A stretch of 5,121 nt of DNA from a virus (Duplodnaviria; Heunggongvirae; Uroviricota; Caudoviricetes), in the IMG/VR virus record IMGVR_UViG_2671180669_000005, positions 1-5,121 of that record, one strand, 5' to 3'. Shown here one piece after another: positions 1-5,121 of the stretch. Under the pieces are notes generated by a model that was given only the letters and a program-made list of their open reading frames with translations, had not been told where the DNA came from and did not search any database. A program made the translations under genes and the position numbers. Position 1 is the stretch's first letter, and each line of letters opens with the position of its first letter.

Positions 1-130
1 TCAGGGTATAAGGGGTTATGGCCACCGGACTACCAAACGGCTGCCAGCCCTCTTTCAGTTTATGTGTCAGCTTTTCCGCAAGATCTGACGGCGACGCCGC
101 CCTGACAACATCATAGTGTTTAAATGCCAT
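1..130 (-). CDS. Small hypothetical phage protein, 5' part only (ORF continues past the left edge of the window)
   Basis: ATG at 130..128 opens a frame that stays open to position 2 (MAFKHYDVVRAASPSDLAEKLTHKLKEGWQPFGSPVAITPYTL...). A purine-rich GGTGGAAAG sits 4-12 nt upstream. It lies downstream, in the late direction, of the Q / methylase / tRNA block, where lambdoid phages carry small ORFs ahead of the lysis cassette. Not in the supplied ORF track because no stop lies in the window. Family not assigned. Confidence 0.4.
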   Translation of the reverse strand, partial: MAFKHYDVVRAASPSDLAEKLTHKLKEGWQPFGSPVAITPYTL

Positions 131-390
131 GGTTCTTTCCACCATCTGAAAAATGATTCTTTAAAATACCTGACATGTAATACAGAAAAAACACAAAACC
201 ATACCTTAAATAAAAACCTCATCATCAAGCAGATATGCATGGATAAACTACAAGACGAGATATAAACCACCCTGCATTTAAATAAACAATAAACAACATC
301 AGAAAAATAATTCTGCTCTATGGTTTACATTCAAAAATATCATTTATACTTTTCAGAACATCACCAGCAAGGCATAAACAAGGAAACTAA

Positions 391-726
391 ATGAAGTGGA
401 TTGTGATTGATACAGTTATCCAGCCATCATGCGGAATATCTTTTTCAGTCATATGGAGTAAAATAAAATTAATAATCTGGTATCAATCGGATGCTTTCTT
501 ACCTCCTGAAAGTATATTTACACTGACTCACACAGGCATCATGCTCAATAACAAAGTGCTACCTGTAACCATTTACAACGTAGTACCATTCAATAAAACA
601 TTCTGGAATTTAATCAAAAACAGCCAGGAATGCCCTACAAATACAGATAACGTATTGAATGAATGCTTTAATAACCGTTGCACTCTGCAAATATGTCCTT
701 ATGGGCTAAAACAACAAAGTCCATAA
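391..726 (+). CDS. Hypothetical protein, AT-rich moron-like ORF (111 aa, 7 Cys, rich in I/N/K)
   Basis: Complete ORF with AGGA 6 nt upstream of the ATG (381-384). GC content is visibly lower than the flanking phage genes. It is opposite in orientation to the late operon and lies between the tRNA block and the downstream late genes, the slot where lambdoid phages carry morons. No recognisable motif; could still be a chance ORF in AT-rich DNA. Confidence 0.35.
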
Positions 727-746
727 GGAGTTTACTCACATCTGAC

Positions 747-782
747 AAAATCAATATAAACAGCCCCTCCGGAGAGGGGCTG
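747..782 (-). terminator. Rho-independent terminator candidate (9-bp perfect stem CAGCCCCTC / GAGGGGCTG, 4-nt loop)
   Basis: Perfect inverted repeat at 761-769 / 774-782 with loop CGGA. On the minus strand the hairpin is followed by TTTATATTGATTTTG (U-rich). On the plus strand the hairpin is followed by GAGAGTGG, so it is oriented for minus-strand transcripts, i.e. the tRNA cluster. Confidence 0.5.
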
Positions 783-1017
783 GAGAGTGGCGCTATGTGC
801 CATTGCATGGTGCCGGGTGCCTCCCGGTGAATTCAGTACCAGCACCTGAATCCGCGATTATCCCATATACCTACTCGCTGATTGCCCCTCCGCACAGGGG
901 GATTCACCATGCCAGTTTCTTTTAACAAACTCCCCGCAAACCAGACAACAGTCAACCGCCTGAATTGTGAGACATTTAAAAAAAAGGCCCACAAAAGCGA
1001 GCCAGGGAAAATAAGTG

Positions 1018-1094
1018 TGGCGCGTTGTACTGGATTCGAACCAGTGACCGATTGCTTAGAAGGCAATTGCTCTGTCCGGCTGAGCTAACAACGC
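1018..1094 (-). tRNA. tRNA-Arg (anticodon TCT, reads AGA/AGG)
   Basis: Reverse complement folds as a cloverleaf: acceptor GCGTTGT/ACAACGC, D-stem GCTC/GAGC, anticodon stem ATTGC/GCAAT with loop CTTCTAA, T-arm ACTGG-TTCGAAT-CCAGT, discriminator G, encoded CCA. 77 nt. Comparable to the rare-codon tRNA triplet (ileZ-argN-argO) between Q and stx in 933W-type phages (from memory). Confidence 0.85.
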
Positions 1095-1107
1095 ATGATG
1101 CAGATAA

Positions 1108-1184
1108 TGGACCGCCATCGGGGACTTGAACCCCGCGCAACCAGCTTCGAAGGCTGGCGCTCTTTCCTGATGAGCTAATGGCGG
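1108..1184 (-). tRNA. tRNA-Arg (anticodon TCG, reads CGA)
   Basis: Reverse complement: acceptor CCGCCAT/ATGGCGG (7 perfect pairs), D-stem GCTC/GAGC, anticodon stem CCAGC/GCTGG with loop CTTCGAA, T-arm CGGGG-TTCAAGT-CCCCG, discriminator T, encoded CCA. 77 nt. C1 at the 5' end is unusual but all four stems are perfect. Confidence 0.75.
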
Positions 1185-1191
1185 TATGTGA

Positions 1192-1267
1192 TGGTGGCCC
1201 TTGCTGGATTTGAACCAGCGACCTGGCGATTATGAGTCGCTCGCTCTCACCACTGAGCTAAAGGGCC
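1192..1267 (-). tRNA. tRNA with CAT anticodon (Ile2-lysidine type or Met; ileZ-like)
   Basis: Reverse complement: acceptor GGCCCTT/AAGGGCC, D-arm TAGCTCAGTGGTGAGAGC, anticodon loop CTCATAA, T-arm GCTGG-TTCAAAT-CCAGC, discriminator A, encoded CCA. 76 nt. Ile versus Met cannot be decided from sequence alone. Confidence 0.8.
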
Positions 1268-1316
1268 GGGAGCAGAATAATAATGGTGCGTAATTAATTC
1301 TGCAATCTCATCCGTT

Positions 1317-2366
1317 TCAAACGATTAAATCCTGAACTTCCCTGACTGTCTGCTCAAAACGTCCGGTCTCCAGTTCAACGCCAATCGCACGACGCCCGAG
1401 CGCCAGTGCCGCTTTTACCGTTGAACCTGAGCCCATAAAAAAATCTGCAACCAGGTCTCCCGGACGACTGCTTGCGCTGATTATCTGCTGCAGCATTTCT
1501 GCCGGTTTTTCGCACGGATGTTTCCCGGGATAGAACTGCACCGGTTTATGTGTCCACACATCCGTGTACGGCACCTGCGCCGTCACACCAAAATACCGCC
1601 GCAGATGCTTATATTCACTCTGCAGCTCCACATACTGCCGGTTCAGTGACGTATACGTATCCACCAGCTGGTGGTGGGGCTTTTCCAGTTCACCGCGCTG
1701 ATGTTTCTCTTCTGCCACCCGGGCAAACAGCGACTGTAATTTCAGATAATCGCTTTCGTTCGGTAGCTGCCACTGACTGGCACTGAACCAGTGCGACACC
1801 ATGTTTTTCTTTCCTGTGGCATCTGCAATCTGTTTTGCCGTTATCCCCAGGGCAGCTCGCGCATCACGAAAGTAAGAAATCAGCGGGGCCATCACATGCT
1901 GTTTCAGTGCACTGCCCTTCGCCGCATACCCGGCATCTTTCGGACGATACGGCCCCTGATAATGTTCCGCGAACAGAATGCGCTCTGTGGCGGGGAAATA
2001 CGCCCGCAGGCTTTCCTTGTTGCATCCGTTCCAGCGTCCGGACGGCTTCGCCCAGATAATATGGTTCAGCACACTGAAGCGTTCACGCATCATGATTTCG
2101 ATATCAGATGCCAGGCGATGACCACAGAACAGGTAAAGACTTCCGGCAGGTTTCAGCACCCGCCAGAACTGCGCCAGACACTGGTCCAGCCACTTCAGGT
2201 AATCATCGTCGCCCTTCCACTGGTTATCCCAGCCCTCAGGCTTCACTTTAAAGTACGGCGGGTCCGTGACTATCAGGTCAACAGAATTTTCGGGTAACGA
2301 CCGGATAAATTCCAGGCAGTCGGCGTTGATTAACTCACAACTGGATATTTTTACAGTATTAAGCAT
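1317..2366 (-). CDS. Beta-class N6-adenine (possibly N4-cytosine) DNA methyltransferase, CcrM-like fold, no cognate restriction gene in the window (apparent orphan)
   Basis: 349-aa ORF. N-terminal motif IV SVDLIVTDPPY with the preceding LINADCLEFIRSLPENSVDL closely resembling the CcrM N-terminus (from memory). HPCEKP is the beta-class HPxxKP motif. C-terminal AdoMet motif I DLVADFFMGSGST. Motif order IV then I defines the beta class. The central segment LGITAKQIADATGKKNMVSHW looks like a helix-turn-helix insertion. No Shine-Dalgarno is evident upstream of the ATG. Confidence 0.9.
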   Translation of the reverse strand: MLNTVKISSCELINADCLEFIRSLPENSVDLIVTDPPYFKVKPEGWDNQWKGDDDYLKWLDQCLAQFWRVLKPAGSLYLFCGHRLASDIEIMMRERFSVLNHIIWAKPSGRWNGCNKESLRAYFPATERILFAEHYQGPYRPKDAGYAAKGSALKQHVMAPLISYFRDARAALGITAKQIADATGKKNMVSHWFSASQWQLPNESDYLKLQSLFARVAEEKHQRGELEKPHHQLVDTYTSLNRQYVELQSEYKHLRRYFGVTAQVPYTDVWTHKPVQFYPGKHPCEKPAEMLQQIISASSRPGDLVADFFMGSGSTVKAALALGRRAIGVELETGRFEQTVREVQDLIV

Positions 2367-2458
2367 GGATCATTAAGCCTGTCTCTGATAGGCTCATTCT
2401 GCTTTTGCGCAAAGCAGTGGGCCTGAGGTTTGCTTGTGAACCCAACGCATGAGCAGAT

Positions 2459-2489
2459 GGCTGGTGGGTGCCCCTAACACCCACCAGCC
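2459..2489 (-). other. 12-bp perfect inverted repeat / stem-loop in the methyltransferase leader (copy 1)
   Basis: GGCTGGTGGGTG (2459-2470), 7-nt spacer, CACCCACCAGCC (2478-2489). No U-tract on either strand, so it is not an intrinsic terminator. Candidate RNA structure or a dimeric-protein operator. Confidence 0.5.
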
Positions 2490-2502
2490 GCCCATTTACC
2501 AC

Positions 2503-2530
2503 AAATAAAAAAGCCTTCACTGCGGAAGGC
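2503..2530 (-). terminator. Rho-independent terminator at the 3' end of the winged-helix gene (copy 1)
   Basis: Minus strand reads GCCTTC-CGCAGT-GAAGGC followed by TTTTTTATTTG. The gene's TGA stop lies inside the hairpin. Confidence 0.6.
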
Positions 2531-2714
2531 GTCTGTAACAACCGAACTGATAGTCTGCCAGACCCGCCATAACCAGCTGGGTCAGTATTAACTGGCAGCG
2601 TTCGCGTGAAAGGTAAGTATTCTGCGCTATCTCCCCGACTGTCGCCGGTTCGGTAACGCTTAATTCATTAAACACCACTCTGGCGGTTTCTGTCATATCC
2701 TGCTGTTTTAGCAT
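2517..2714 (-). CDS. Small winged-helix / HTH protein (65 aa), PapI/FaeA-like architecture (tentative), copy 1
   Basis: Encodes the same 65 aa as copy 2 (MLKQQDMTETARVVFNELSVTEPATVGEIAQNTYLSRERCQLILTQLVMAGLADYQFGCYRRLPQ). Start placed at ATG 2714..2712, which has AGGGA about 8 nt upstream. The supplied 94-aa ORF (2517..2801) is an upstream frame extension created by a 2-nt indel and is probably not translated. Confidence 0.55.
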   Translation of the reverse strand: MLKQQDMTETARVVFNELSVTEPATVGEIAQNTYLSRERCQLILTQLVMAGLADYQFGCYRRLPQ

Positions 2715-2836
2715 GTCTTTTTCCCTTTTCCGGTTAACGTGACACACCAATAACTCTTGTCGAAAAAGCCAGCAAGCTGAAAGACAGGTATTCACCGCCA
2801 CCAGCGCGTTTACTGTACTGACGCGATTTCAGTCAT

Positions 2837-2860
2837 AAAAAACCCGCCAGGCGGCGGGGT
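2837..2860 (-). terminator. tR'-like intrinsic terminator (copy 1)
   Basis: Minus strand reads CCCGCC-GCCT-GGCGGG followed by TTTTTT. About 40 nt downstream of the AACGAT pause element of PR' copy 1. Confidence 0.6.
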
Positions 2861-2895
2861 GTAAAAAATCTTCTAACGTCAGGCATAAAACGCCC

Positions 2896-2935
2896 ATCGT
2901 TAGAGCAAATTTACCACAGATTCGGGAAAAATCAA
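2896..2935 (-). promoter_or_regulatory. PR'-like late promoter with qut-type pause element (copy 1)
   Basis: Minus strand: -35 TTGATT (2935..2930), 16-nt spacer, extended -10 TGgTAAATT (-10 at 2913..2908), then tgctct AACGATGGGCG (AACGAT at 2901..2896). The -10 TAAATT and downstream AACGATGGG match the lambda PR'/qut arrangement as I recall it. Confidence 0.55.
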
Positions 2936-2940
2936 CAACA

Positions 2941-3359
2941 CTATCGCGTTACCCTCTTTAACTGCCGCTCCGCCCATGCCTCTTCAATGTCAAACCGAAC
3001 CACCAACGTATCGTAAAAGCGTTTCACTGATTTTTTCCACGTATCAAGCGTGATAGCACTCGTCACTTTGCATATGGCATTAAATGCCTCCGTTGATGGC
3101 AGCCTTTCACAGCCACGACCACCACAACGCTGGCAGTCTCTGATAACAGGCATACCACGTTTTACCGACTCTTCACGATGAATGGCGACACCACGCCCAC
3201 GGCAATCCTTACAGGCGGTGGAAACCTCACCCTTTCCGCCACACTCCGGACAGGCAACTTTTACCACCTCCCGATTTTTTTTCCATTCTTCCCAGTAAGA
3301 CGGATACACACCTTTCGTACACTTTGCCCATACCGGCGGCTTACCATCCGGATACTGGA
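2941..3359 (-). pseudogene. Q' : 3' fragment of an antiterminator Q gene (about 139 codons), lacking the N-terminal half
   Basis: Frame ends at TAG 2943..2941 and aligns to Q residues from QYPDGKPPVW to the C-terminal VTR, with about 14 aa substitutions concentrated in the last ~50 residues. It begins at the duplication junction with no ATG (the supplied ORF starts at a TTG at 3363). The duplicated methyltransferase ATG (3389..3387) reads into it out of frame, giving a 42-aa chimeric ORF (3261..3389). Confidence 0.65.
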
Positions 3360-3481
3360 ACAACTGGATATTTTTACAGTATTAAGCATGGATCATTAAG
3401 CCTGTCTCTGATAGGCTCATTCTGCTTTTGCGCAAAGCAGTGGGCCTGAGGTTTGCTTGTGAACCCAACGCATGAGCAGAT

Positions 3482-3512
3482 GGCTGGTGGGTGCCCCTAA
3501 CACCCACCAGCC
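3482..3512 (-). other. 12-bp perfect inverted repeat / stem-loop (copy 2)
   Basis: Identical to 2459-2489: GGCTGGTGGGTG, 7-nt spacer, CACCCACCAGCC. Confidence 0.5.
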
Positions 3513-3525
3513 GCCCATTTACCAC

Positions 3526-3553
3526 AAATAAAAAAGCCTTCACTGCGGAAGGC
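3526..3553 (-). terminator. Rho-independent terminator at the 3' end of the winged-helix gene (copy 2)
   Basis: Same hairpin GCCTTC-CGCAGT-GAAGGC plus TTTTTTATTTG on the minus strand; the stop codon is in the loop. Confidence 0.6.
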
Positions 3554-3737
3554 GTCTGTAACAACCGAACTGATAGTCTGCCAGACCCGCCATAACCAGC
3601 TGGGTCAGTATTAACTGGCAGCGTTCGCGTGAAAGGTAAGTATTCTGCGCTATCTCCCCGACTGTCGCCGGTTCGGTAACGCTTAATTCATTAAACACCA
3701 CTCTGGCGGTTTCTGTCATATCCTGCTGTTTTAGCAT
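3540..3737 (-). CDS. Small winged-helix / HTH protein (65 aa), PapI/FaeA-like architecture (tentative), copy 2
   Basis: ORF with AAGGA 6 nt upstream of the ATG. Predicted helix - turn (EPATVGEIAQNT) - recognition helix (RERCQLILTQLVMAGL), consistent with a small winged-helix regulator. The EPxT...IA...LS...LLT...G spacing resembles PapI/FaeA as I recall it. Protein is identical in both copies while the upstream non-coding DNA carries an indel. Confidence 0.6.
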   Translation of the reverse strand: MLKQQDMTETARVVFNELSVTEPATVGEIAQNTYLSRERCQLILTQLVMAGLADYQFGCYRRLPQ

Positions 3738-3857
3738 GTCTTTTCCTTTTCCGGTTAACGTGACACACCAATAACTCTTGTCGAAAAAGCCAGCAAGCTG
3801 AAAGACAGGTATTCACCGCCACCAGCGCGTTTACTGTACTGACGCGATTTCAGTCAT

Positions 3858-3880
3858 AAAAAACCCGCTCGGCGGCGGGT
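3858..3880 (-). terminator. tR'-like intrinsic terminator (copy 2)
   Basis: Minus strand reads CCCGC-CGCCGA-GCGGG followed by TTTTTT. Shorter stem than copy 1. Confidence 0.55.
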
Positions 3881-3916
3881 TGTAGAAACTCTTCTAACGT
3901 CAGGCATAAAACGCCC

Positions 3917-3956
3917 ATCGTTATGACGAATTTACCACAGATTCCGGAAAAATCAA
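3917..3956 (-). promoter_or_regulatory. PR'-like late promoter with qut-type pause element, immediately downstream of Q (copy 2)
   Basis: Minus strand: -35 TTGATT (3956..3951), 16-nt spacer, TGgTAAATT (-10 at 3934..3929), cgtcat AACGATGGGCG (AACGAT at 3922..3917). Starts 6 nt after the Q stop codon. Confidence 0.6.
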
Positions 3957-3961
3957 CCTTG

Positions 3962-4783
3962 TTACCTAGTTACCTTTTTTAACTGCCGCTCAGCCCATGC
4001 TTCTTCAATATCAAACCGGGTCACCAGCGCATCATAAAATTTCTTAACTGTTTTTTCCCATGACGCGCGTGTTATCTGGTTTGTCACCTCGCATATAGCA
4101 TTAAATGCCTCCGTTGATGGTAGTCTTTCATAGCCACGACCACCACAACGCTGGCAGTCTCTGATAACAGGCATACCACGTTTTACCGACTCTTCACGAT
4201 GAATGGCGACACCACGCCCACGGCAATCCTTACAGGCGGTGGAAACCTCACCCTTTCCGCCACACTCCGGACAGGCAACTTTTACCACCTCCCTGACTTT
4301 TTTCCATTCTTCCCAGTAAGACGGATACACACCTTTCGTACACTTTGCCCATACCGGCGGCTTACCATCCGGATACTGGATCTTGTTTGTAAAAACCTCG
4401 CTTTCAATAAATTTTTTTCCGTGACAGCAGGGGCACTGTTTTTTGCTCGCCGCGCTACGGGCATAATCTTCAAACGCATACGAAGCCATAATACGCATCA
4501 CTGCCGGTTTTATTTCTGCCGGGAGTTTTCTTAACGCCGCCACGCGATCACACCGACTGAGTGCATATTCTGTCAGCAATTCTGTTGCCCGCTCTCTGTC
4601 ATTCATACTAATGCCCATTTTCCCAAGGAACGCAGAAAACCCCATCTCAGCCCGATTCTGTGTCATGCCCTGCGCGGCCATCACATCAGTGATACTCAGC
4701 GCATCTTTCGACGTTGAGGCCGATGCATCAGTCAGGCCGGGGGATTTTGGGGAGTAGTATTTCGGTAAATCTTCCAGTTTCAT
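3962..4783 (-). CDS. Q: Late-gene antiterminator Q, lambda-Q family, with an enlarged zinc-binding region (four CxxCxGxG-type motifs)
   Basis: 273 aa. Shares with lambda Q (recalled sequence) SPKSP near the N-terminus, DVMAA.GM, YA..DY.RSAA, CxxCHG, C.RCxGxGY.R.PS, W..TVK..YDALV and a C-terminal VTR. Contains CPCCHGKK, CPECGGKG, CKDCRGRG and CQRCGGRG. Start ATG overlaps the rusA stop (ATGA). Followed directly by a PR'/qut-like promoter. Confidence 0.85.
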   Translation of the reverse strand: MKLEDLPKYYSPKSPGLTDASASTSKDALSITDVMAAQGMTQNRAEMGFSAFLGKMGISMNDRERATELLTEYALSRCDRVAALRKLPAEIKPAVMRIMASYAFEDYARSAASKKQCPCCHGKKFIESEVFTNKIQYPDGKPPVWAKCTKGVYPSYWEEWKKVREVVKVACPECGGKGEVSTACKDCRGRGVAIHREESVKRGMPVIRDCQRCGGRGYERLPSTEAFNAICEVTNQITRASWEKTVKKFYDALVTRFDIEEAWAERQLKKVTR

Positions 4784-5121
4784 TTTTTGACCTGCCCTTC
4801 AAGCATTATGGGGTAAATCTTCACCCCCAGACGTCCACCAGATACTGGCTGAGCACGAACGATATTGATTTCATCAAACTGCTCATCGTCCATTAGCAAC
4901 CCCGCATGCGTCAGCGCATCCAGCGGCGCTTTCAGAATATTGTCCAGGTCACGGCGGCGCTTATCCGGTGGTTCTGCAATAATTTTTATTGCCAACCTTC
5001 CGGACAGGCTTAATTTCAGCCGCTGCTGGCGAACAATAAGCGCCACTGCCCGGCGATAACGCTCCCCGGCTTTTGATACAAAATATGTGCTGCCACGACG
5101 ACGCCAGTAAGTGTTCACCGT
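4780..5121 (-). CDS. rusA: Holliday-junction resolvase RusA (N-terminal ~12-15 aa lie beyond the right edge)
   Basis: Frame is open to the window edge; the supplied start at 5118 is an internal GTG. Matches the recalled RusA sequence: YxxxRGxxxVSxxG near the N-terminus, catalytic-region DKRRRDLDN (RusA DRRRRDLDN), and GGRL near the C-terminus. Sits immediately upstream of Q as in lambdoid nin regions. Confidence 0.85.
   Translation of the reverse strand, partial: TVNTYWRRRGSTYFVSKAGERYRRAVALIVRQQRLKLSLSGRLAIKIIAEPPDKRRRDLDNILKAPLDALTHAGLLMDDEQFDEINIVRAQPVSGGRLGVKIYPIMLEGQVKK

Follow-up and report, generated by a model that had tools for sequence, protein, structure and literature searches.

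A long-arm lambda-family Q antiterminator with a predicted second zinc ribbon, in a prophage contig whose apparent Q duplication reads most simply as a scaffold join

Late-regulatory region of the prophage

The stretch of DNA analyzed here, 5,121 nucleotides in length and referred to below as the window, corresponds to the entire 5121-nt contig CXEX01000233.1 of the draft Shigella sonnei assembly GCA_001261655.1. It is the late-regulatory region of a lambdoid prophage, and contains the following features:

5118..4780, minus strand: rusA, overlapping the start of Q
3962..4783, minus strand: Q antiterminator gene of the lambda Q family (PF03589), a 273-aa ORF
3917..3956, minus strand: PR'-like late promoter, found by alignment with lambda PR'; -35 TTGATT at 3951-3956, spacer TTTCCGGAATCTGTGG in the place of the Q-binding element (QBE), -10 TAAATT at 3929-3934
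3917-3922, minus strand: sigma-dependent pause element AACGAT
3854..3881, minus strand: tR'-like intrinsic terminator, called at 3881..3862 by a terminator scan, the presumed target of Q
3737..3540, minus strand: 65-aa ORF, following Q and a short intergenic region
3360, single base: scaffold join, N in the public record, separating an L010-type contig (3361-5121) from a TUM10008-type one (1-3359)
Next to the join, minus strand: methylase fragment of ten codons, joined to the last 139 codons of a second Q copy, Q' (3359..2941)
2941..3359, minus strand: Q', a second Q allele of which only the 3' part, starting at codon 135, is present; its C-terminal allele is that of the Q of E. coli TUM10008
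2835..2935, minus strand: second PR'-terminator region, with -35 at 2930-2935, -10 at 2908-2913, AACGAT at 2896-2901 and, from the terminator scan, a second terminator copy at 2843-2858 plus T tract
2366..1317, minus strand: complete N6/N4 DNA methylase gene
1267..1018, minus strand: three tRNAs
391-726, plus strand: iraM-like gene

The intergenic region and the small ORF recur after Q'. In the best-matching complete genomes, such as that of E. coli TUM10008, the same gene order is found without the repeat, and is followed by genes for a nanS-type esterase, a holin and a lysozyme.

The context of Q is that of the lambda Q family: the gene comes after the nin/rusA region and lies upstream of a late promoter, a pause element and a terminator. 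The arrangement TTGATT-N16-TAAATT-N6-AACGATGGG begins five bases past the Q stop codon, and its TAAATT-N6-AACGATGGG part is conserved with lambda PR'. A consensus promoter scan did not call this promoter, which has 8 of 12 matches and is below the threshold of the scan. In both this locus and that of lambda, the Q gene is followed by a promoter of the PR' type with its AACGAT pause element, and then by a terminator; the two differ in the sequence of the promoter spacer, the QBE region, and in that PR' begins 5 nt past the Q stop codon here instead of about 44 nt.

A lambda-family Q with four cysteine motifs

The first-pass annotation of this DNA took the ORF for a Q antiterminator internally longer than lambda Q and carrying four DnaJ-type cysteine motifs, and on these points our analyses agree with it. 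Firstly, the protein scores 178.6 bits against PF03589 (cut-off 26.7, E 2.5e-53), and in a phmmer search of all PDB sequences lambda Q was the sole significant match (E 4.9e-41); the three other, weak matches, with E values of 0.033-0.33, were to anti-TRAP and ribosomal protein L32. Secondly, Q has 273 aa, 66 more than the 207 aa of lambda Q (PDB 4MO1, 7UBJ-7UBN), and the two share 40% identity over the whole length. Thirdly, an AlphaFold2 (AF2) model of Q, with a mean pLDDT of 78.6, matched lambda Q chain 7ubn_Q in Foldseek with an E value of 1.7e-13 and a target TM-score of 0.74. Homology to lambda Q extends over the N-terminal region, the body with its helix-turn-helix (HTH) and the arm, and the fold is the same. 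The exact protein is present at NCBI as antitermination protein Q of Shigella sonnei.

The C..C motifs of Q start at residues 117 (CPCCHGKK), 171 (CPECGGKG), 184 (CKDCRGRG) and 210 (CQRCGGRG). Three of the four are perfect CxxCxGxG motifs, and the remaining one, motif 1, reads CxxCxGxK. Across 109 aligned homologues, none of the eight cysteines is conserved at less than 90% and some do not vary at all, which means that the four-motif pattern is real and under selection and did not arise by chance. Aligned to lambda Q, the protein and its gene divide as follows:

4601..4783, minus strand: Q residues 1-61, counterpart of the N-terminal segment of lambda Q (alignment to lambda 1-61, many invariant positions)
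4445..4600, minus strand: Q residues 62-113, first half of the helical body (alignment to lambda 62-113)
4241..4444, minus strand: Q residues 114-181, insert that lambda Q lacks (gap when the two are aligned) and predicted second zinc ribbon
4412..4435, minus strand: motif 1 CPCCHGKK (C117, C120), at least 90% conserved
4298..4381, minus strand: hypervariable hairpin tip, residues 135-162, class IQYPDGKPPVWAKCTKGVYPSYWEEWKK, delimited by pairwise identity
4250..4273, minus strand: motif 2 CPECGGKG (C171, C174), invariant
4130..4240, minus strand: Q residues 182-218, lambda-type zinc ribbon or "arm" (HMMER alignment to lambda 116-152)
4211-4234, minus strand: motif 3 CKDCRGRG, equivalent to lambda C118/C121
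4133-4156, minus strand: motif 4 CQRCGGRG, equivalent to lambda C144/C147
3965..4129, minus strand: Q residues 219-273, second half of the body including the HTH region (alignment to lambda 153-207)

The last of these segments, residues 219-273, is where the two Q alleles of the window differ. In lambda Q, the body consists of residues 61-113 plus 153-207, the arm is the zinc ribbon of residues 114-152, and the N-terminal segment refolds into a nozzle at the RNA exit channel (PMC9388147). The AF2 model has high pLDDT values (92-95) in the helices of residues 62-113 and low ones at residues 13-26, which is to be expected because this segment is disordered in free Q. The two proteins thus have in common the nozzle-forming N-terminus, a helical body with HTH and a CxxCxGxG zinc ribbon.

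Since the promoter and terminator context is present and the nozzle-forming N-terminal region is well conserved, Q most likely works, by analogy, as lambda Q does. From its homology to lambda Q, its binding site would be in the late promoter that directly follows its stop codon, and it would load onto RNA polymerase halted by the sigma-dependent pause element AACGAT, after which the Q-loaded polymerase would read through the tR'-like terminator.

An insert at the boundary between body and arm

HMMER aligned residues 1-113 of lambda Q to the same residues of Q, and lambda residues 116-207 to Q residues 182-273, in agreement with MAFFT. In these alignments the lambda motif CRDCHGTG pairs with CKDCRGRG of Q, and CGRCKGVG pairs with CQRCGGRG; the C-to-C spacing is 26 in both proteins, and the sequence between motifs 3 and 4 is related. 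Residues C184, C187, C210 and C213, all of them invariant, align to the lambda zinc ligands C118, C121, C144 and C147. Judging from the alignments, then, the insert supplies motifs 1 and 2, and motifs 3 and 4 are the counterparts of the lambda ligands; the first-pass annotation, according to which the extra block added motifs 2 and 3, has to be corrected accordingly. The 68 aa of the insert stand in place of lambda residues 114-115 and confer two extra cysteine knuckles and a long hairpin on Q. Residues 110-112, 117 and 122-126 of lambda Q contact the zinc-binding domain of the beta' subunit of RNA polymerase (PMC9388147). By alignment, the insert is placed exactly at the body/arm boundary of lambda Q, between polymerase-contacting residues.

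Several lines of evidence bear on how the insert is folded. In both full-length and arm-only AF2 models, each motif forms a knuckle between short strands, and two strands of 12 residues each (125-136 and 159-170) enclose a small helical tip; within the insert, pLDDT values reach only about 65-80. The motifs are at distances of 3 and 7 residues from the ends of the insert, and since the insert replaces a two-residue linker, its two ends must meet. According to the MAFFT alignments, a homologue has either both motifs 1 and 2 or neither of them, and both are retained when the linker between them changes in length, from about 50 aa in Q to 13 aa in phage mEp010. The segment of motifs 3 and 4, for its part, keeps the spacing and secondary structure of lambda Q and superposes together with the body on 4mo1 (133 of 145 residues). 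Because the ends must meet, the motifs co-occur, the linker varies and the 3-4 segment is lambda-like, motifs 1 and 2 most likely form a zinc site of their own, within a predicted second ribbon with a long beta-hairpin. The earlier proposal that the extra part is a second zinc ribbon is thus most likely correct as far as the predicted strands and knuckles are concerned.

As to the origin of the insert, hhalign matched it to the lambda-type ribbon with a probability of 87.9%, a match that leans largely on Cys and Gly columns, placing motif 1 on motif 3 and motif 2 on motif 4. This suggests that the insert is probably a diverged tandem duplicate of the lambda-type ribbon. A separate candidate, an internal repeat indicated by a Pfam model that matched both halves of Q, was rejected, as BLASTP found zero similarity between the halves.

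We picture the arm as follows. Motif 1 (C117/C120) and motif 2 (C171/C174) would jointly bind a second zinc and so staple the ends of the insert together, and the stapled insert would display a long beta-hairpin whose tip varies. The lambda zinc site would be retained in motifs 3 and 4, so that the arm would consist of two tandem CxxCxGxG zinc ribbons. Because the insert emerges beside the equivalents of lambda residues that touch the beta' zinc-binding domain, it may add or modify a protein or backbone contact in the loading complex, without reading the promoter sequence.

Resemblance to DnaJ and anti-TRAP

The pairing just described is sequential (1+2, 3+4), and differs from that of DnaJ-type zinc modules, which is nested (1+4, 2+3) and, in the Cys-rich domain of DnaJ, set in a V-shaped hairpin. 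If the topology of Q were DnaJ-like, motifs 2 and 3 would bind one zinc, in the manner of anti-TRAP or of the Zn2 site of DnaJ, and motifs 1 and 4 the other, and the lambda 3+4 site would have been rewired. Such a topology could account for the spacing of 13 residues between motifs 2 and 3, which equals that of the single zinc site of anti-TRAP, for the phmmer match of Q residues 167-195 to anti-TRAP 2bx9 (E 0.033), for the match of NCBIfam RtpA (E 4.7e-05), and for a Foldseek match of the Q model to DnaJA2 (E 0.5, probability 0.98). It could likewise account for the match of PF00684 (DnaJ_CXXCXGXG), which covers residues 171-218; at 30.1 bits, however, this match is below the gathering score of 32.7, and the DnaJ and anti-TRAP scores of Q are all under the thresholds of their families. 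Moreover, lambda Q binds its zinc with motifs 3 and 4 alone (PMC9388147), the corresponding segment of Q has the lambda-like spacing, secondary structure and superposition mentioned above, and motifs 1 and 2 are gained and lost together, with a linker as short as 13 aa. We consequently regard the nested topology as quite unlikely, and sequential pairing as the likely arrangement.

The DnaJ resemblance, which is real as regards motifs and fold class, is also found in relatives of Q: PF00684 scores 35.4 bits for QuuQ of E. coli K-12, which passes the threshold, and 23.1 bits for lambda Q. As lambda Q gives the same weak match, the resemblance belongs to the whole lambda Q family. An assignment of Q to DnaJ itself was discarded, the TIGR02349 model scoring 27.9 bits (cut-off 377) over residues 163-218 only, and a J domain was sought among the Pfam matches of Q with zero hits. 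The name "chaperone protein DnaJ" given to homologue P0032 is a mis-annotation. Compared with the other holders of CxxCxGxG zinc modules, namely DnaJ/Hsp40, anti-TRAP and BSD2, Q has no J domain, G/F region or client-binding domains. AlpA of Pseudomonas, a Q-like antiterminator (PDB 7XYB), is 9% identical to Q and matches it in the helical body, not in the double ribbon.

Exchange of the hairpin tip

The most variable part of Q is the tip of the hairpin. In the 109 homologues, mean pairwise identity is 31% at residues 135-162 versus 61-79% in the other segments of Q. The tips fall into five discrete classes of 15-32 residues, and different classes are found on backbones that are up to 94% identical. 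The class present in the window (class 3) is conserved across genera, and better so than the backbone: the tip of Serratia homologue P0026 is about 75% identical by a hand count on the alignment, against 58% for the protein overall.

It could be imagined that the extra ribbon uses its variable tip to recognize DNA in a sequence-specific manner, and in this way extends or changes the QBE. The lambda arm does touch positions 11-13 of the QBE (PMC9388147), the insert is basic (13 K/R against 8 D/E) and has 8 aromatic residues, and, as P0026 illustrates, the tip is better conserved within its class than the backbone. However, a comparison of tip class with the Q-binding region of the promoter showed zero co-variation among classes 0, 1, 2 and 4 and class 3 of the window, all of which have the spacer TTTCCGGAA(T/A)(C/T)TGTG in common. 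In classes 2 and 4 the DNA upstream of the -35 is identical too, and in the window the Q stop codon abuts the -35, hence the upstream DNA is coding sequence. The same spacer across tip classes implies that the tip is not the determinant of the QBE, and we hold a DNA-reading role to be highly improbable.

On the other hand, the insert might be functionally neutral, an addition that the arm tolerates; the ribbon would then have been duplicated selfishly or by drift, and its loop would be free. The Q proteins of lambda, P22 and HK97 work without it, and tip length and sequence vary freely between classes without co-varying with the promoter. Against neutrality, the four added cysteines, together with the strands beside them, are kept in genera ranging from Escherichia to Edwardsiella and Providencia, the conservation of the tip within a class exceeds that of the rest of the protein, and the insert is found in about half of the lambda Q-family genes of sequenced phages (131 of 249 records). 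All in all, we find neutrality rather unlikely.

A further possibility is that the second ribbon serves as a scaffold for a swappable "head", the tip of 15-32 aa, which would make a class-specific protein contact during or after the loading of Q. This is speculative, and we give it a small chance of being correct. If it were, candidates for the partner would be a phage or host factor, or else the Q or the defence system of a competing prophage; long-arm Q would load with a geometry absent from the lambda Q structures; and the tip would be a target of conflict between phages or between phage and host. The reading that we prefer for the insert as a whole is still that of a second zinc ribbon at the body/arm boundary, which may contribute a contact in the loading complex.

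Apparent duplication of Q

The window contains two 1023-bp units, which are identical at 2337-2721, have about 55 differences at 2722-3110 and are nearly identical at 3111-3359. Codon 10 of the methylase is joined to nt 404/405 of Q (codon 135), without microhomology and with an out-of-frame fusion. The first-pass annotation had the junction fall at the edge of the inserted block, and proposed that the block may act as a recombination-prone cassette. In fact, the junction lies at codon 135, that is, 21-22 codons inside the 68-codon insert and between motifs 1 and 2.

The window differs from CXEX01000233.1 at one base only, position 3360, and this base is both the junction and the sole N of the record. 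Because the base is an N, the join was not sequenced through. A single N proves that a join is unsequenced, not that the two pieces are non-adjacent in the genome. In gene order, window positions 3361-5121 precede the N and match S. sonnei contig L010, which has the normal order Q-orf65-methylase, with 99.9% identity; positions 1-3359 follow the N and match E. coli TUM10008 with 99.6% identity. The simplest reading is that the apparent duplication results from scaffolding, which joined contigs of two related prophage copies that had their common stretches collapsed; rather than a duplicated pseudogene, Q' is then most likely the end of a contig of its own, derived from another copy of the prophage.

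We also considered whether the contig ends are branch points between alleles, an idea for which the reference alleles (TUM10008 Q and L010 methylase) gave no support: nt 1-626 of the full Q of the window are identical to those of the Q of TUM10008, and over its first 400 nt the methylase of contig L010 is identical to the copy in the window. Within the window, Q' differs from the full Q at 3272-3276.

Could the tandem duplication nevertheless be real, with the inserted block as a recombination-prone cassette and its edge as the breakpoint? Both units are present in the contig, which is listed for two samples, the join at codon 135 coincides with the start of the hypervariable tip, and other rearranged Q ORFs are found in draft data (P0001, P0008, P0012). 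However, the one N in the record falls on the junction, the breakpoint lies well within the insert, the join has neither microhomology nor a preserved frame, and the roughly 55 substitutions are clustered in 390 bp, with each side matching a different known prophage at 99.6-99.9%. In addition, the junction was not reproduced elsewhere. By megablast it was absent from 5426 complete E. coli genomes, which is weak evidence since that collection is without Shigella; exact-pattern scans using the base that the window has at the N found it neither in IMG/VR nor in GTDB representative genomes nor in JGI metagenomes; and patterns allowing a gap of 0-12 nt did not retrieve it from genomes and metagenomes either. 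A genuine duplication is, in our judgment, quite improbable, and the cassette as first proposed falls with it, given the position of the junction inside the block and the single-N join. A weaker form of the cassette idea does hold as judged from the aligned sequences, in which the 28-aa tip (135-162) is exchanged between backbones up to 94% identical.

Taking the evidence on gene and contig together, we consider it probable that the long-arm Q of this locus is a functional late-gene antiterminator of the lambda family and that the apparent duplication is a scaffold join. The case also calls for caution: what looks like a striking "duplication breakpoint" can turn out to be a scaffold join over a single N that an ordinary base has replaced.

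Long-arm Q proteins among phages and prophages

The first-pass annotation implied that a four-motif Q is unusual, an impression that did not survive a survey of homologues. DNA encoding the insert is present in 2482 of 5426 complete E. coli genomes. Of the best 120 database homologues, 108 are 260-277 aa long, nearly all with four C..C motifs, and most of the 120 carry a precomputed PF00684 hit; their hosts include Escherichia, Shigella, Salmonella, Klebsiella, Enterobacter, Citrobacter and Serratia. In the phage collection, where the long form was defined as a single hit covering at least 80% of the 273-aa query, it occurs in 131 of the 249 records with a lambda Q-family gene. Phages SfV, ES18, ST104, mEp460 and phiEt88 and Stx2c phages, among others, have the long form, and lambda, P22 and HK97 have the short one.

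E. coli K-12 itself harbors a protein of long-arm architecture, QuuQ/YdfT of the Qin prophage (250 aa). This protein, SfV Q, ES18 gp73 and ST104 gp23 are 42-47% identical to Q and have, as Q does, motif 1, a hairpin, motif 2 and a lambda-type ribbon. Their hairpins differ from that of Q in being 15-20 aa shorter and in the unrelated sequence of the tip, and ES18 gp73 has CxC at motif 3.

The PDB sequence search shows that the solved structures are of the short form only. A search of the literature for a second zinc ribbon or DnaJ-like motif in Q, or for QuuQ/YdfT, returned nothing relevant, and the searchable papers included no experimental work on a long-arm Q. It had been noted at the outset that the extra motifs would be valid but not novel if they were common to a well-characterised Q subfamily with a known structure. 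They do belong to a common and very large subfamily, but one whose structure is unsolved.

Implications

The Q of the window is an ordinary lambda-family antiterminator of a very common subtype with two zinc ribbons, the second of them predicted, which we refer to as "long-arm". It is ordinary because it is identical to named Q entries and because its subtype is found in nearly half of E. coli genomes; the remaining value of the finding lies at the level of the long-arm subfamily. Everything known about structure and mechanism in the lambda Q family derives from lambda's short form. Among sequenced phages, about half of the family members, including those of Shigella, Salmonella and Stx-related phages, carry a conserved, predicted second ribbon, as does QuuQ of K-12. 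This ribbon would be positioned at the hinge that touches the zinc-binding domain of the polymerase, and its presence bears on how far the lambda model of Q loading may be transferred to these proteins.

Variation in the Q antiterminator

The two Q alleles in the window, the 273-aa full Q and the partial Q', differ almost exclusively in two places: the last 56 residues, which make up the body half that carries the HTH, and one base of the promoter spacer. The corresponding positions, with the full-Q copy first, are as follows.

3965-4131 and 2944-3110, minus strand: divergent C-terminal stretch of the Q alleles
3940 and 2919: promoter-spacer difference, CCGGAAT in the first copy versus CCCGAAT in the second

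The last 56 residues of Q and the promoter-spacer base may co-vary, as a protein would with its binding site.

The hairpin tip of the arm (amino acids 135-162 of the query) falls into five discrete classes among the Q homologues. These classes are swapped between backbones that are 92-94% identical, while the promoter spacer remains unchanged (homologue pairs P0034/P0048 and P0028/P0118; loci L017-L023). Furthermore, motif 3 is CxC (CQC or CRC), not CxxC, in the long-arm Qs, i.e., those with the 68-aa insert, of ES18 (L005), PSTCR3 (L007) and Edno5 (L008), so that in these three loci the spacing is changed at the counterpart of lambda C118/C121.

Both halves of Q are matched by the same 87-position Pfam model, PF03589.

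4445-4783, minus strand: match to the N-terminal half (residues 24-111, E 4.7e-23)
3965-4237, minus strand: match to the C-terminal half (residues 178-265, E 2e-30)

A BLASTP comparison of the two halves found no similarity between them. The double match is either an oddity of the model or the trace of a very old repeat.

Neighboring genes

Directly downstream of the tR'-like terminator lies a conserved ORF of 65 aa, present in two copies, whose sole match is a weak one to a TrmB winged-helix (E 0.0026). The second copy differs by 2 bp at 2722-2723, which lengthens its open frame to 94 aa, starting from a GTG at 2801.

3540-3737 and 2517-2714, minus strand: 65-aa ORF

Three further features are located at lower coordinates.

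1018-1267, minus strand: tRNA cluster (CAT anticodon, Arg-TCG, Arg-TCT)
752-941, minus strand: STnc100 sRNA (Rfam, 132.4 bits; gathering score 47)
391-726, plus strand: 111-aa iraM-like ORF, annotated in related genomes as anti-adapter protein IraM

The tRNA cluster is of the ileZ-argN-argO type; its CAT-anticodon tRNA is called Met by ARAGORN, but tRNA-Ile in the RefSeq annotation of the E. coli genome TUM10008. In Stx phages, a cluster of this type stands before stx. In the window the tRNAs are followed by iraM in place of toxin genes, with the STnc100 sRNA flanked by the two. A precomputed table assigns the IraM-like ORF to the PmrD Pfam family; our own Pfam scan returned no match for it.

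Rearranged Q ORFs and the scaffold join

Three singleton Q ORFs, P0001 (337 aa), P0008 (243 aa) and P0012 (213 aa), carry an internal duplication or deletions, with breakpoints at about residues 178, 83/113 and 61/122, respectively. All three originate from short contigs or MAGs, and they may represent further assembly artefacts or real rearrangements. At the scaffold join in the window, position 3360, the public record CXEX01000233.1 has an N where the sequence as given reads A (plus strand). It appears that ordinary bases were substituted for ambiguous ones during preparation of the window, which conceals scaffold joins from anyone reading the raw sequence.
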